Shown here in pieces: positions 723-35,730 of a DNA stretch of 39,253 bases. The notes beneath the pieces were generated by a model, which worked only from the letters and a program-made list of their open reading frames with translations, was not told where the DNA came from and did not search any database. The stretch lies in the UHGV virus genome UHGV-1369056; one strand, given 5' to 3'. Numbering within the stretch: the first letter of the stretch is position 1; each line of letters starts with the position of its first letter. The DNA comes from a virus. The position numbers and the translations under genes are program-made.

Positions 723-899
723 ATGAAAATCATAGCGATGAACGAAGAACTGGGCGTAATCTGGTATACGGCTAACGACTATAAGTATCGCACTAAGCAT
801 GTGATAATCTACGGATTGTCTAAGACTGAGTGGGATAGCCGTGAGCAAGCGCAGGACGCGTTCAATAAGTGCCTGAACCATGCGTTCAATTGCCAGTGA
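723..899 (+). CDS. Hypothetical small early protein (58 aa, MKIIAMNEELGVIWYTANDYKYRT...)
   Basis: ATG at 723, TGA at 897-899, read by hand (below the 60-aa cutoff of the ORF track). Same strand as all other genes; preceded by a copy of the repeated early element tgatagtcactaac. Weak SD. Confidence 0.35.
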   Translation: MKIIAMNEELGVIWYTANDYKYRTKHVIIYGLSKTEWDSREQAQDAFNKCLNHAFNCQ

Positions 900-980
900 T
901 TAACTACAGGTCGTTAGACTCATAGCGGCCTGATTGATAGTCACTAACATACACACAATTAACTTTGAGAGGATATAAAT

Positions 981-1689: not shown

Positions 1690-1815
1690 ATGTACCAGAT
1701 AACTTATAGCAGTGAACAGGCGTTCTACGATGGGTGCTACGAGATGATGAAGCGCGGGGCTTGCTACGTGGCTAATCACCATAGCTTGACCATAACGCTG
1801 ACAGGTGGATACTGA
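1690..1815 (+). CDS. Hypothetical small early protein (41 aa, MYQITYSSEQAFYDGCYEMMKRGACYVANHH...)
   Basis: Hand-read ORF, ATG 1690 to TGA 1813-1815; below the ORF-track cutoff; Cys/His-containing; weak SD. Confidence 0.25.
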   Translation: MYQITYSSEQAFYDGCYEMMKRGACYVANHHSLTITLTGGY

Positions 1816-1971
1816 GTGATAAACGAGAGGTCATCGACTGATAGGTGGCCTCAAAGATTATCACTTACATTGATAGGGGTTAACTATGAGTGTGGGATAT
1901 TTGGTATGCCTAGCGCCAGTTATCTGGATGATAGGTTATGGGATATACGATTGTATTAAACGGAAATCACT

Positions 1972-5820: not shown

Positions 5821-5843
5821 CCTAAACTATCACTATAGGATTA
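5821..5843 (+). promoter_or_regulatory. Phage RNAP promoter, CCTAAACTATCACTATAGGATTA
   Basis: Consensus match; upstream of gene 1.1 (as T7 phi1.1). Confidence 0.8.
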
Positions 5844-5890
5844 GACTCAAGGTCATGACTTAAAGTCGTGGCCTTCATGATTAACCCTAT
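5834..5890 (+). promoter_or_regulatory. RNase III-like processing stem-loop (copy A of 3)
   Basis: Upper stem aaggtcatgac/gtcgtggcctt (5849-5859 / 5865-5875, including G-U pairs) with loop ttaaa, flanked by lower stem tatagg/cctata. Shares the motif agactcaaggtcat...gtggcctt with copies at 12895 and 35630, with compensatory changes. Confidence 0.55.
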
Positions 5891-5914
5891 AACCTAAACA
5901 ACTGGAGCTACAAC

Positions 5915-6094
5915 ATGTATCAGAACACTATCAACTTCGAGCGCATCCGTGAACGTCAGAAGACTGAAGGCTACATTCCGAAGGGCCGCAAGCTGAACAA
6001 GACAAAGCGTGGAGGCGGTGTCAAAGGTGCTTTCCGTAACGCTGAAGGCAAAGACTCTATGGTCAACCAAGAGAAATACTTCGTAGGAGCATAA
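5915..6094 (+). CDS. 1.1: gp1.1-like small basic protein (59 aa)
   Basis: Hand-read ORF; contains KGRKLNKTKR, matching the T7 gp1.1 motif (GRKLNKTKR) as recalled; SD ctggagc upstream. Confidence 0.65.
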   Translation: MYQNTINFERIRERQKTEGYIPKGRKLNKTKRGGGVKGAFRNAEGKDSMVNQEKYFVGA

Positions 6095-7493: not shown

Positions 7494-7503
7494 CTAAACG
7501 TCA

Positions 7504-7540
7504 ACCCAGTGGTCTTCGGACTGCTGGGTTTCTTTGCTTT
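7504..7540 (+). terminator. Intrinsic terminator (early TE analogue) with UUCG tetraloop
   Basis: 11-bp stem acccagtggtc/gactgctgggt with loop ttcg, followed by ttctttgcttt; located just after the ligase gene, where T7 TE lies. Confidence 0.7.
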
Positions 7541-10692: not shown

Positions 10693-12677
<1,985 letters not shown>

Positions 12678-12730: not shown

Positions 12731-12895
12731 ATGCTAAGAAAACTTAAAGCTCGCTACCATCGGTTCATGTACAAATGGTGGAGCGACGCAGCAACCTGCC
12801 TGTCCAACATTCTGGGAGACCAGAGGTTCGACTCTAAGGCATGGAAGAAAGCTAACCGTAAGTTTATGTATCACTTCTTGCGTACAGACTTATAG
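12731..12895 (+). CDS. Hypothetical small basic protein (54 aa)
   Basis: ATG 12731 with SD aggaga, in frame with track ORF 12656..12895; position corresponds to the T7 4.x small genes. Confidence 0.4.
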   Translation: MLRKLKARYHRFMYKWWSDAATCLSNILGDQRFDSKAWKKANRKFMYHFLRTDL

Positions 12896-12941
12896 GTCTA
12901 AACTCAAGGTCATTCACATAGAGTGGCCTTTATGATTAGAC
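12895..12941 (+). promoter_or_regulatory. RNase III-like processing stem-loop (copy B of 3)
   Basis: Lower stem gtctaa/ttagac, upper stem aaggtcatt/agtggcctt, loop cacatag; same architecture as copies A and C; located just upstream of the DNA polymerase gene, like T7 R4.7. Confidence 0.55.
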
Positions 12942-12958
12942 TAAACGGAGGATTAACC

Positions 12959-15130
12959 ATGTTTGACCTTAAGAGTATCTGGGGTTCTGACATCGAGACC
13001 AACGGTCTCCTTGATACAGTCTCCCAGTTTCACTGTGGGGTCCTGATTAACGCCGAGTCGAATGAGACCCTTAAGTATGGGGTAGCTCCGATGGTCGGTA
13101 TCGTCGGTGGCTTCAAAGAGTATGTTCATAAAGTGGAAGAGATTGCCGCATCGCCTGATGGTATGCTGGTATTTCACAACGGTATCAACTATGACGTACC
13201 GGCTATCGACAAGCTGAAGCGTCTGTACTTTGGGAAACGTTTTAACTTCCCGAAACACAAGATGATTGATACATTGGTGCTGGGACGCTTGATGTATCCA
13301 AACATCAAGTTCTCAGACATGGGAGCGGTGAAAGCTGGTCGTCTGCCGCCTCAGATGATGGGACGCCAGTCTCTTGAGGCTTGGGGTTATCGTCTTGGTG
13401 AGATGAAGGGTGAGTACAAGCATGATTACGTTGCCAAATGCAAGGCTGAAGGTATCAAATATAAGGCTGGGGACGAATGGTTGTTCCCGTCTCAGGAGAT
13501 GCTGGACTATAACGTTCAAGACGTTGTGGTAACACTGGCTTTGTTCAAGAAGTTCCTGACTGACAAGTATTACTTCCAGTCTGAACAGTTCGCTTTCGAC
13601 CAGATTTATGCGTTGCGTCTGGAACATGATGCTGCGTGGACCTGTGCGAAGATGGAACGTAACGGATATCCGATGAACATCGAGATGGTCGAAGGCTTAT
13701 ATCGTGAACTCACCGTCAAACGTGCAGAGTTGCTGGACAAGCTGCGTTCGACTTTCGGTAGCTGGTACGCACCAAAGGGAGGCAAGGAGTTCTTCAAGCA
13801 CCCACGGACAGGCAAGGACCTTCCGAAGTATCCGCGAGTCGTGTACCCTAAGGTAGGTGGCATCTTTAAGAAGCCGAAGAACAAAGCTCAACGCTTAGGT
13901 CTTGAACCTTGTGAACGCGATACGCGAGACACGATGGAGGGAGCACCGTTCACACCTATCACCTACGTTGAGTTTAATCCGGGAAGCGGAGACCACTTAG
14001 CGAAAGTCTTGATGGAGCGGGGCTGGGAGCCTGTGGACTTCACTGACACAGGGAAACCTGTAGTCGATGACGAGACGTTAGAACACGTTAAGTTGCCAGA
14101 CGCAGAGGCTCAGGCTTGCGTAGAGCTGGTCCGTGAGTATCTGGTAGTCCAGAAGCGCATAGGTCAGGCGGCTGAAGGTAAGAACGCATGGTTGAAACTT
14201 GTAGGTCCAGACGGACGTATGCACGGTTCAATCAACCCATGCGGGGCAGTAACCGGACGTGCGACTCACAGTTCACCAAACATGGCTCAGGTCCCTGCTA
14301 ACGGTGCTCCGTATGGTGAGATTTGCCGTGGTGCTTTCGGTGCAGCTTGGAACAAGACGGATGGTAAGCCAGACCCTTGGATTCAAGTGGGTGTGGATGC
14401 TTCAGGTCTTGAGCTTCGTTGTCTTGGGAACAGAGCGGCTCCGTTTGATGGTGGTGCATATGCGAAGACTGTGGTCGAAGGTGACATCCACTGGGCCAAC
14501 GCAGTAAACGCTGGGTTAGCACCTAACGTCCCACGCGATAAGTCGAGCCACGACCATGATGCTTTCCGTGACAACGCTAAGACGTTCATCTATGCGTTCC
14601 TGTATGGTGCAGGGGCCGCTAAGATTGGACTGATAGTAGGCGGTGGGAAGAAGGAAGGTTCAGCTCTCATGAAGAAATTCATTGAGGGTACACCAGCCAT
14701 CAAAGACCTCAGGGAAGCTGTGAGTAATACGTTAATCTCAGACTCTAAGTGGGTGGACGGTGAGAATATCGTCAAGTGGAAACGCCGTTGGTTGCGTGGA
14801 CTTGATGGTCGCCGTATCCACATCCGGTCGCCGCACTCAGCACTGAACGCATTACTTCAAGGTGATGGTGCGGTAGTCTGTAAGCACTGGATGGTTCTGA
14901 CGGAGAAGAAACTTGAGGAGGCTGGTTATGGTAACGGTTGGGATGGGGACTTTGCGCTAATGGCTTGGATTCACGACGAATTGCAGATTGCGTGTCGTAC
15001 TCAGGAGATTGCCGAAGAAGTCGTCCGTATTGCACAAGAAGCAATGCGTGAGGTCGGACGTTTTTATAACTTCAAGTGTGAGCTTGATACGGAGGGTAAG
15101 ATTGGACCAACGTGGAAAGAATGCCATTGA
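12959..15130 (+). CDS. 5: DNA polymerase (T7 gp5 homologue, family A)
   Basis: Exo motif DIETNGL, FHNG.NYDVPA, GEMKGEYK, YNVQDVVVT, HPRTGK.LPKYPR, KVGGIFKKPKNKAQR, AVTGRATH, DASGLELRC, DNAKTFIY.FLYGAG, HDE.Q and C-terminal GPTWKECH match T7 gp5. ATG 12959 with SD ggagga is preferred over ATG 12923, which lies inside the upstream hairpin. Confidence 0.97.
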   Translation: MFDLKSIWGSDIETNGLLDTVSQFHCGVLINAESNETLKYGVAPMVGIVGGFKEYVHKVEEIAASPDGMLVFHNGINYDVPAIDKLKRLYFGKRFNFPKHKMIDTLVLGRLMYPNIKFSDMGAVKAGRLPPQMMGRQSLEAWGYRLGEMKGEYKHDYVAKCKAEGIKYKAGDEWLFPSQEMLDYNVQDVVVTLALFKKFLTDKYYFQSEQFAFDQIYALRLEHDAAWTCAKMERNGYPMNIEMVEGLYRELTVKRAELLDKLRSTFGSWYAPKGGKEFFKHPRTGKDLPKYPRVVYPKVGGIFKKPKNKAQRLGLEPCERDTRDTMEGAPFTPITYVEFNPGSGDHLAKVLMERGWEPVDFTDTGKPVVDDETLEHVKLPDAEAQACVELVREYLVVQKRIGQAAEGKNAWLKLVGPDGRMHGSINPCGAVTGRATHSSPNMAQVPANGAPYGEICRGAFGAAWNKTDGKPDPWIQVGVDASGLELRCLGNRAAPFDGGAYAKTVVEGDIHWANAVNAGLAPNVPRDKSSHDHDAFRDNAKTFIYAFLYGAGAAKIGLIVGGGKKEGSALMKKFIEGTPAIKDLREAVSNTLISDSKWVDGENIVKWKRRWLRGLDGRRIHIRSPHSALNALLQGDGAVVCKHWMVLTEKKLEEAGYGNGWDGDFALMAWIHDELQIACRTQEIAEEVVRIAQEAMREVGRFYNFKCELDTEGKIGPTWKECH

Positions 15131-16985: not shown

Positions 16986-17008
16986 ACTAAACTATCACTA
17001 TAGGGACT
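16986..17008 (+). promoter_or_regulatory. Phage RNAP promoter, ACTAAACTATCACTATAGGGACT
   Basis: Consensus match; upstream of gene 6.5 (as T7 phi6.5). Confidence 0.8.
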
Positions 17009-17069
17009 TTAGGACCTAAGATATGACTATAAGATAGACTTTAGTCTTAACTTAAAGAGGAGATTCAAG

Positions 17070-22116: not shown

Positions 22117-22156
22117 AACCCCTTGGGTGCCTTCGGGTGCTTGAGGGGTTTTTTTT
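22117..22156 (+). terminator. T-phi-like late terminator
   Basis: aaCCCCTTGGGtgccttcgggtgcTTGAGGGGTTTTTTTT: GC-rich hairpin plus T-run, very similar to the T7 T-phi sequence (AACCCCTTGGGGCC...TCTTGAGGGGTTTTTTG) and in the same place after the capsid gene. Confidence 0.9.
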
Positions 22157-22600: not shown

Positions 22601-23167
22601 ATGGCTCAATACATTCCACTGAATGCTAACGATGACTTAGACGCCATCAACGATATGTTAGCTGCTATCGGTGAACCAGCAGTCCTACAGCTTGACGAGG
22701 GGAACGCTGATGTCTCGAACGCTCAACGTATACTGCATCGTGTCAATCGTCAGGTCCAAGCTAAAGGCTGGAACTTTAACATCAACGAAGCTGCTGTCCT
22801 GACACCTGATGTCCAAGACAATAGGATTCGATTCCTTCCGTCATACCTTCGTGTAATGACTGCTGGGGCCACCAGCTACTACAGCAACATGGGTGGATAC
22901 CTGTACGACCTGTCCACTCAGTCAACCACTTTCACTGCCCCTATCACGGTAGAGCTTGTGGAGATGAAGCCATTCTCCGAGATGCCTGTGGTCTTCAGGG
23001 ACTACATCGTCACTAAAGCTAGCCGTGAGTTCAACGCTAAGTTCTTCGGTAGCCCAGAGTCAGAGCTATACCTTCGTGAGCAGGAAGCAGAACTCTATCA
23101 GCAGGTTATGGAGTACGAGATGGACACTGGTCGCTACAACATGATGTCAGACATCGGGAGGGACTAA
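22601..23167 (+). CDS. 11: Tail tubular protein A, gp11 homologue
   Basis: 188 aa; INDMLAAIGEP, RILH.VNRQVQAKGWNFNI, RDYIVTKASREFN.KFFG.PE and MEYEMD.G.YNM match T7 gp11. Confidence 0.93.
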   Translation: MAQYIPLNANDDLDAINDMLAAIGEPAVLQLDEGNADVSNAQRILHRVNRQVQAKGWNFNINEAAVLTPDVQDNRIRFLPSYLRVMTAGATSYYSNMGGYLYDLSTQSTTFTAPITVELVEMKPFSEMPVVFRDYIVTKASREFNAKFFGSPESELYLREQEAELYQQVMEYEMDTGRYNMMSDIGRD

Positions 23168-23394
23168 TGGCTAGTCACAACCTGAAGATTCACCGCCAGC
23201 ACTTTGGTCCGGTACAGCTAGGTCTAAAGACAGCAGAGCTGAGACTTAACGACCGGGACTTTAAGGTTGGCGATTGGCTTATCCTGAATGAATGGGACAA
23301 CGGGTATACTGGACAACAGGTAGCGCGTAAGGTTGTCCACATTGCTGACGTTGGTGACATCGCTGAAGGATACGTCCTAATGAGTATGATTTAA
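23167..23394 (+). CDS. DUF3850-like (ASCH/PUA-like fold) small protein
   Basis: 75 aa; LKIHRQHFGPVQLGLKTAELRLNDRDFKVGDWLILNEW fits my recollection of the DUF3850 pattern (H.LKI.P.YF..V..G.KT.E.R.NDRDF.VGD.L.L.E); start overlaps the gp11 stop (TAATG). Confidence 0.55.
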   Translation: MASHNLKIHRQHFGPVQLGLKTAELRLNDRDFKVGDWLILNEWDNGYTGQQVARKVVHIADVGDIAEGYVLMSMI

Positions 23395-25768: not shown

Positions 25769-25818
25769 AAGGGCCTATAGATTTACCTTAACTATCACTA
25801 TAGGGACTATAGGCCCTT
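25769..25818 (+). promoter_or_regulatory. 12-bp perfect inverted repeat (aagggcctatag / ctataggccctt) bracketing a phage promoter
   Basis: Arms at 25769-25780 and 25807-25818; the promoter core lies in the ~26-nt loop; only read-through transcripts from upstream would contain both arms. Confidence 0.5.
25786..25808 (+). promoter_or_regulatory. Phage RNAP promoter, CCTTAACTATCACTATAGGGACT
   Basis: Consensus match; upstream of gene 13 (as T7 phi13). Confidence 0.8.
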
Positions 25819-35369: not shown

Positions 35370-35629
35370 CGCAGATGGACTTAGAGAAGTTCCTCTTAAT
35401 GCTAGATACTGAACGTGCTCGACTCATGCTGCAAGACTTGCGGGATGACACTAAGCGTTCACCTCAGCTCTACAACGCCATTGAGAAGCTGCTTGCTCGT
35501 CACAACTTTGTGTTAAGCAAGGTGTCTGTTGACGAGAAGACGCTGGCTGATATGGAGGCCCTGAACGCAGAGTACGATAAGGTGCTTTCAGCGACTGAGG
35601 ATAATGACACAGGGTATGGTGTTCAATAA
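35366..35629 (+). CDS. 18: Terminase small subunit (gp18 homologue)
   Basis: 87 aa; FLLMLDTERARLMLQDL.D..KRSPQLYNAIEKLLARHNF matches T7 gp18 (FLEMLDTAMAQRMLADL.D.ERRSPQLYNAINKLLDRHKF). Confidence 0.88.
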   Translation: MTQMDLEKFLLMLDTERARLMLQDLRDDTKRSPQLYNAIEKLLARHNFVLSKVSVDEKTLADMEALNAEYDKVLSATEDNDTGYGVQ

Positions 35630-35679
35630 GTGTTAGACTCAAGGTCATTACTATATGTAGTGGCCTTTATGGTTAACAC
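35630..35679 (+). promoter_or_regulatory. RNase III-like processing stem-loop (copy C of 3)
   Basis: Lower stem gtgtta/taacac, upper stem aaggtcattac/gtagtggcctt, loop tatat; between genes 18 and 18.5, as T7 R18.5. Confidence 0.55.
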
Positions 35680-35730
35680 TAACTAGTGGAGGCGACTCTA
35701 CGTGAAATCTGATAAACCGGGAGGGCAACT

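Follow-up and report, generated by a model that had tools for sequence, protein, structure and literature searches.

Three stem-loops at gene boundaries of a Kayfunavirus genome

The window, that is, the whole stretch of 39,253 nucleotides analysed here, is a complete Kayfunavirus (K1F/EcoDS1-like) genome, its map of open reading frames (ORFs) being as in a complete T7-like genome. Most of it aligns with EcoDS1 at ~93% identity, and the ~2-kb stretch around the first of the elements described below is 85-96% identical to K1F/EcoDS1-like phages of the genus. Its left end (positions 1-70) carries five tandem copies of a 13-bp unit, ACAACCATAAGTC on the + strand and GACTTATGGTTGT on the − strand, presumably part of the terminal-repeat/concatemer-junction repeats typical of T7-like phages. 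A small ORF of 75 amino acids with an ASCH/DUF3850 domain is located between genes 11 and 12 (23167-23394); PHROG annotates it as 'RNA-binding protein', and EcoDS1 also has it, as an unnamed ORF.

Three stem-loops occupy gene boundaries on the + strand. Site 1 (5826-5896) has a phage promoter on its upstream side and the gene 1.1 homologue downstream. At site 2 (12883-12951) the stem adjoins the stop codon of a gp4.3-like ORF, and the next gene is gene 5 (DNA polymerase, ATG at 12959). According to the ORF map and PHROG assignments, site 3 (35618-35688) has on one side gene 18, the small terminase, whose stop codon (35627-35629) is directly followed by the stem-loop, and on the other side gene 18.5, an Rz-like spanin. 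They were assigned as putative RNase III processing signals of the R1.1, R4.7 and R18.5 type, respectively, from covariance model scores of 62.4 (E 1.7e-13), 66 and 63.4 bits and the folding z scores given below, together with the alignment to T7 for site 1 and the flanking genes for sites 2 and 3. The parallel with the positions of T7 R1.1, R4.7 and R18.5 drawn in the original prediction is borne out by these flanking genes and by the T3 record NC_003298, where stem_loop features named 'RNase III recognition site' are annotated at R1.1, R4.7 and R18.5: T3 R1.1 overlaps promoter phi1.1, gene 5 follows R4.7 immediately, and R18.5 starts at the stop codon of gene 18 and is followed by gene 18.5. 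In the records of K1F and EcoDS1 no RNase III site is annotated, and literature searches on such sites in K1F or Kayfunavirus yielded reviews only.

The core CTCAAGGTC-N13-15-GGCCTTYATG occurs exactly three times in the window, always on the + strand (5846-5879, 12903-12934 and 35638-35671), and gave no match in shuffled sequence. Both minimum free energy (MFE) and centroid folds yield the same architecture at all three sites, namely a lower stem, an asymmetric internal loop with 4 nt (ACUC) in its 5' half and 5 nt (YAUGR) in its 3' half, and an upper stem whose 10-12 bp include two U.G pairs, adding up to 17-22 bp in two coaxial stems around the loop. At site 1 the lower stem comprises 5834-5839/5886-5891 plus 5841-5844/5881-5884, the internal loop ACUC 5845-5848 and CAUGA 5876-5880, and the upper stem 5849-5860/5864-5875. 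The corresponding elements are 12895-12901/12936-12942, ACUC 12902-12905 with UAUGA 12931-12935, and 12906-12915/12921-12930 at site 2, and 35630-35636/35673-35679, ACUC 35637-35640 with UAUGG 35668-35672, and 35641-35651/35657-35667 at site 3. MFE values are −22.8, −19.9 and −23.4 kcal/mol for sites 1, 2 and 3, with z scores of −5.07, −5.37 and −4.93, and none of 200 shuffles folded equally well.

The sequence and the exact shared core thus agree with the original prediction as to the presence and places of the three stem-loops, and the two-stem structure that it proposed is the one recovered by folding; the lower-stem arms that it quoted (TATAGG/CCTATA, GTCTAA/TTAGAC and GTGTTA/TAACAC) and the two G-U pairs of the upper stem are likewise correct. 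Some details need amendment: the shared sequence reads AAACTC and not AGACTC at site 2, the top of the upper stem of that site is UUC/GAG instead of tt/ag, CCTATA spans 5886-5891 so that the first element ends at 5891 and not at 5890, and the hairpin loops have 3-5 nt, not 5-7 nt.

Each lower stem is specific to its own site. Duplexes between own arms reach −7.0, −7.7 and −8.1 kcal/mol for sites 1, 2 and 3, as against only −1.7 to −4.1 kcal/mol for five of the six combinations in which arms are cross-paired between sites. The exception (−7.1 kcal/mol, about equal to the own pairing of site 2) joins the 5' arm of site 2 to the site 1 3' arm and arises because the site 2 flank also contains TATAGG. 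This 5' flank, ACTTATAGG (12888-12899), looks like a phage promoter in decay; certain relatives have a full promoter-like sequence, AACTATCACTGTAGGATAG, right next to the RNase III site before gene 5, repeating the promoter/R1.1 arrangement.

The site 1 promoter

The promoter upstream of site 1 (5821-5843, + strand, +1 at G5838) is the equivalent of phi1.1 and scores 31.2 with a position weight matrix (PWM) derived from the 11 annotated EcoDS1 promoters, among which its orthologue stands at 6034-6056. Positions −4 to +2 of the site 1 promoter, TATAGG, also form the 5' arm of the outer part of the site 1 lower stem; being constrained by the promoter, they leave only the CCTATA partner free to co-vary at this site. 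A transcript started at 5838 keeps the architecture, with a shortened lower stem (GG/CC plus UUAG/UUAA) and −17.7 kcal/mol, and transcripts reading through from upstream would form the full lower stem. The same layout, promoter and then R1.1, is found in T7 (phi1.1A) and T3.

Homology with the RNase III sites of T7 and T3

T7 R1.1, situated between genes 1 and 1.1, is the standard substrate of Escherichia coli RNase III. The common motif is present in T7 at each classical cleavage coordinate of Dunn & Studier 1983 (R0.3, R0.5, R1, R1.1, R1.3, R4.7 and R18.5), and these seven T7 sites can be aligned with the three of the window in every column. The core sequence CUCAAGGUC…GGCCUUYAUGAUU and the AAGGUC/GGCCUU base of the upper stem with its U.G pairs are common to both sets. 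The closest likeness is to R1.1, which shares the core ACUCAAGGUCAU…GUGGCCUUUAUGAUU and is 87-94% identical to the three window sites when the internal loop and the helices next to it are compared; in that loop and in the first eight pairs of the upper stem, where the recognition boxes lie, there is no difference. R1.1 also resembles the window sites in its 4-nt/5-nt loop, its upper stem of 10-12 bp with two U.G pairs, its sequence-variable lower stem, and a promoter (phi1.1A) immediately upstream, such that promoter-started transcripts begin inside the lower stem. On the contrary, the sequences of the lower stem and of the upper-stem top differ from those of the window in a compensatory manner, and the outer lower stem in the window extends back into the promoter TATA. 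Moreover, all three window sites are R1.1-like whatever their position.

Regarding R4.7 and R18.5, the T7 and T3 sites share their genome positions with sites 2 and 3 and are all found by the covariance model, and the sequence downstream of T7 R18.5 is homologous to the window. In T7, however, both stand further from the consensus, with 71-81% core identity to their window counterparts, while these counterparts show 94% core identity to T7 R1.1, and gene 4.7 intervenes between R4.7 and gene 5. The window sites are 89% alike as compared with 67% for the T7 sites among themselves, which raised the possibility of concerted evolution; this was discarded as not needed, because the three sites are equally close to T7 R1.1 and a retained consensus explains the figures equally well.

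The cellular substrates of E. coli (rRNA precursor stems, rnc/pnp leaders) and the lambda sites have in common with these elements some two helical turns and recognition by RNase III (PMC1540722), but the enzyme typically cuts both of their strands, leaving a 2-nt 3' overhang, and they show no sequence shared with the T7-type signal, in which the internal loop confines cleavage to a single strand. Scanning the sites against Rfam, whether at gathering thresholds or with E<=1, gave no match, as no curated family exists there for RNase III signals of T7 type. Altogether, the comparison at the sequence level shows that the window elements are homologues of mapped T7 RNase III sites, and not mere likenesses in shape.

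Conservation of pairing

When the three window sites and the seven T7 sites were joined in a ten-sequence alignment, 87.5% of the cells formed standard pairs and 12 of the 20 pairs displayed double changes; none of 500 shuffles reached any of these measures, and sliding the 3' partner lowered pairing to 31-47%. A scan of viral contigs by exact core match then provided 119 loci, all on ~40-kb T7-like contigs. On these loci, an alignment-free test, free of the weakness of fitting to a model though not of the exact-core collection, gave −7.5 kcal/mol for the native flank duplex vs −3.95 kcal/mol for permuted flanks (p 1e-36), and the variable top of the upper stem continued the helix for 3.7 pairs vs 0.74 in shuffles.

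The covariance model, built from T7 and window sites only, produced 191 matches in the collected loci, corresponding to 124 distinct aligned sequences. Considering that the core pairs of this set are invariant by construction and that the large alignment is fitted to the model, 87.7% of its cells pair and 359 cells hold double changes vs 129 in shuffles. Compensatory differences can be read directly between phages in the arms before gene 1.1, as in GGAUUAG/GAUUAACC vs GGAACAU/AUGUCC. Classified by downstream gene, the positional orthologues in other phages precede gp1.1 (29), gp1.3 (13), gp5 (12), gp18.5 (11) and gp0.3 (7). In T3, which took no part in model building, 8 of the 10 annotated RNase III stem-loops were recovered with no other match on the + strand and a single weak one on the − strand (E 0.89), the missed sites being the differently built R3.8 and R13. 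The claim that the arms differ in a compensatory way, and hence that selection acts on RNA structure, therefore holds within the window, against T7 and across the 124 distinct sites, and the covariance-model search proposed with it returned related phages in which pairing is kept.

Further members of the family in the window

That there were three copies proved an undercount: the three are present, but the covariance model, run on the window with filters off, finds further members, and the family of RNase III signals has at least five. The fourth, more diverged and of R0.3 type, lies at 884-953 (+ strand, 43 bits, E 2e-8), just upstream of gene 0.3 (ocr-like, ATG at 981), and adopts the two-stem fold (z −4.77) with a predicted cleavage at U935^G936; EcoDS1 has an orthologous model match before its gene 0.3. 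The fifth, of R0.5 type, is situated between early ORFs at 1804-1873 (+ strand, 38.3 bits, E 3.6e-7; −25.5 kcal/mol, z −5.89), with predicted cleavage at A1855^G1856 and an EcoDS1 orthologue at 1481-1550. A weak second R0.3-type copy (635-710, + strand, 24.3 bits, E 0.002, z only −2.25) precedes a small ORF (723-899) and is 78% identical to the copy at 884-953.

The T7 and T3 sites R3.8, R6.5 and R13 differ from those above in that they are promoter-associated, have neither the CUCAAGG motif nor the conserved internal loop, and escape the model. Two hairpins of this kind were seen in the window. An R3.8-like one of 11 bp (10920-10946, + strand, z −2.05) comes directly after the promoter at 10904-10926 and, devoid of the CUCAAGG motif, keeps CCCTTTGTTCGC as at T7 and T3 R3.8. 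An R13-like one of 12 bp (25769-25818, + strand, z −3.33) encloses the phi13 promoter (25786-25808, located with the promoter PWM), as does the annotated R13 stem_loop of T3. The covariance model detected no R6.5-, R1- or R1.3-type site in the window. Around the promoter at 16986, a candidate R6.5-type site was rejected for want of a significant fold (z −0.16) and of a model match; 29 bp downstream of this phi6.5 promoter, a weak promoter-like match, CCTAAGATATGACTATAAGATAG (17015-17037, PWM 18.7), may be a degenerate promoter duplicate. A candidate R1-type site after the promoter at 2501 was also dismissed, since the 5' half-motif GGACTCAAGGTC (2518-2530) has no 3' partner, z is −1.16 and the model gives no match; standing before gene 1, this half-motif may at most be the relic of an R1-type site.

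The signal is strongly dependent on the strand. The model scores the three original sites at 62-66 bits on the + strand vs 11-13 bits on the − strand, and each of the six sites folds better on the + strand than on the − strand owing to conserved U.G pairs, two pairs being U.G in 117 and 75 of the 124 sequences.

Possible cassette junctions and an over-represented palindrome

In the early region, the small ORF at 723-899 (58 amino acids, phrog_20418, unknown function) is framed by the two R0.3-type signals. Relative to EcoDS1, the upstream copy with its flank is 98.7% identical to the segment that holds the EcoDS1 pre-0.3 site (810-962, to which it is homologous), vs 85.8% for the downstream copy with gene 0.3. 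Furthermore, the window/EcoDS1 homology breakpoints at 705, 895, 1810 and 5822 coincide with RNase III-type sites. The layout at 635-953 hints at a cassette insertion or at a recombination joint at a processing site, a hint weakened because indels are expected at gene boundaries anyway.

The palindrome GAC-N5-GTC, with half-site (A/G)GAC(Y), is found 76 times in the window (for example at 127, 2519, 5844, 5857, 10928, 18521, 35636 and 39209) vs ~10 times at other spacings, an over-representation of ~8-fold; synonymous-codon shuffles give 35.6 ± 3.0, a figure that includes 22 fixed sites, intergenic or spanning gene boundaries. Counts elsewhere are 76 in EcoDS1, 21 in the first 8 kb of K1F, 14 in T7 and ~11 in T3, and the density reaches 1.95 per kb in window-related loci vs 0.14-0.42 per kb in distant T7-like phages, the genome-wide enrichment being confined to Kayfunavirus and related contigs. 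EcoDS1 keeps 59 of 68 aligned sites (87%) vs 89 of 131 control words (68%). With N3 as spacer (a Tth111I-type word), GAC-N3-GTC is absent from the window vs 12.7 ± 2.9 expected from synonymous shuffles and is nearly absent from T7, T3 and EcoDS1 too, which is consistent with avoidance of a restriction site across the group. Among ten small ORFs, mostly of unknown function, considered with Pfam and PHROG as possible readers of GAC-N5-GTC, no DNA-binding, methyltransferase or nuclease domain was found, and a full-text literature search for GACNNNNNGTC gave nothing on phages.

The 5' half-motif of the stem-loops, ACTCAAGGTC, has 26 near-matches vs 3.5 in dinucleotide shuffles and 8.8 in codon shuffles, an excess that led to the palindrome. 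It is conceivable, though rather improbable, that Kayfunavirus RNase III signals serve two purposes at once, as portable junctions of early-gene cassettes and, through their 5' half, as a DNA word for an unknown reader. Under this doubtful joint reading a cassette would consist of a gene plus its own processing site and would be exchanged at the signals, and, the 5' half GACTCAAGGTC being an instance of GAC-N5-GTC, part of the conservation seen at the sites could serve a reader at the DNA level and not RNase III.

Alternative roles of the stem-loops

As stable, G+C-containing intergenic hairpins followed by a short U-containing stretch (UUUAU), the three elements might be taken for transcription terminators or pause hairpins acting on host or phage RNA polymerase. 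A terminator scan that found TE-like (7503-7530) and Tphi-like (22130-22147) elements as positive controls nonetheless returned none of the three sites, which are devoid of the T-run required of Rho-independent terminators. Conservation of a lower stem and an internal loop has no role in termination, and what has been mapped at the homologous T7 sites is cleavage and not termination (PMC6121014; 10.1101/106799), so that termination or pausing is hardly credible here. It is also very unlikely that the structures act without cleavage, whether as stabilising hairpins or as translational regulators of the downstream ribosome-binding site, even considering that RNase III may bind them uncut, as binding uncoupled from cleavage is known for some of its substrates (PMC1540722), and that the sites stand 25-60 nt upstream of start codons: Shine-Dalgarno sequences fall outside the lower stems, and identity with R1.1 in the internal loop and first eight upper-stem pairs is identity with an efficiently cleaved RNA.

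Another reading would regard the ~45-bp repeat as a protein-binding or recombination site at module boundaries, its RNA fold being incidental. It would account for the four homology breakpoints in or at the edge of such sites, for the ORF enclosed by two R0.3-type copies, and for the presence at sites 1 and 3 of the genus-specific, over-represented GAC-N5-GTC. On the contrary, the opposite strand would have C.A mismatches in place of the conserved U.G pairs, it is pairing and not sequence that the compensatory changes keep, the signal is confined so markedly to one strand, T7 and T3 have such sites with no enrichment in GAC-N5-GTC, and indels at intergenic boundaries need no special explanation. 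The likelihood of a role solely in DNA is therefore judged to be very small.

Predicted processing and its significance

Considering the homology, the conserved pairing and the strand dependence together, we conclude with high confidence that the three elements are RNase III processing signals of the T7/T3 type acting in + strand RNA, cleavage itself being deduced from the likeness to T7. The substrates of E. coli RNase III extend over some two helical turns; where there is an internal loop, only one phosphodiester is cut and a protective 3' hairpin is left (PMC1540722). R1.1 itself, a 60-nt RNA with an asymmetric 4-nt/5-nt internal loop, undergoes one primary cleavage by RNase III into products of 47 and 13 nt (PMC6121014), and T7 R4.7 and R18.5 are described as strong sites (bioRxiv 10.1101/106799, citing Dunn & Studier). 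The 13-nt product matches GAUUGACCUUCUU in the T7 sequence, which places the T7 cut at CCUUUAU^GAUU.

In the polycistronic early and late transcripts, each window element would fold into some two helical turns of quasi-continuous duplex, with 7-10 bp in the lower stem, 10-12 bp in the upper one and the 4-nt/5-nt loop as an interruption between them, and would be bound by the RNase III of the E. coli host. Since the loop and the first eight upper-stem pairs are as in R1.1, cleavage of a single strand in the 3' half of the loop may be expected, at CCUUYAU^GRUU, and the predicted bonds are U5878^G5879, U12933^G12934 and U35670^G35671. The upstream mRNA would then end in the intact upper hairpin, which would protect it from 3'-5' exonucleases, and the messages of genes 1.1, 5 and 18.5 would begin 36, 25 and 60 nt before their start codons, respectively, with probable effects on mRNA stability and translation.

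RNase III signals of the T7 type have belonged in textbooks ever since the paper on the T7 genome. The kind of element described here is thus already known, at most its instances in Kayfunavirus being unannotated, and conceptually the finding adds nothing new. Its value is practical, as the mRNA boundaries of a K1F-like phage can now be annotated, with predicted processed ends before genes 0.3, 1.1, 5 and 18.5 that are of use for transcript models and phage engineering.
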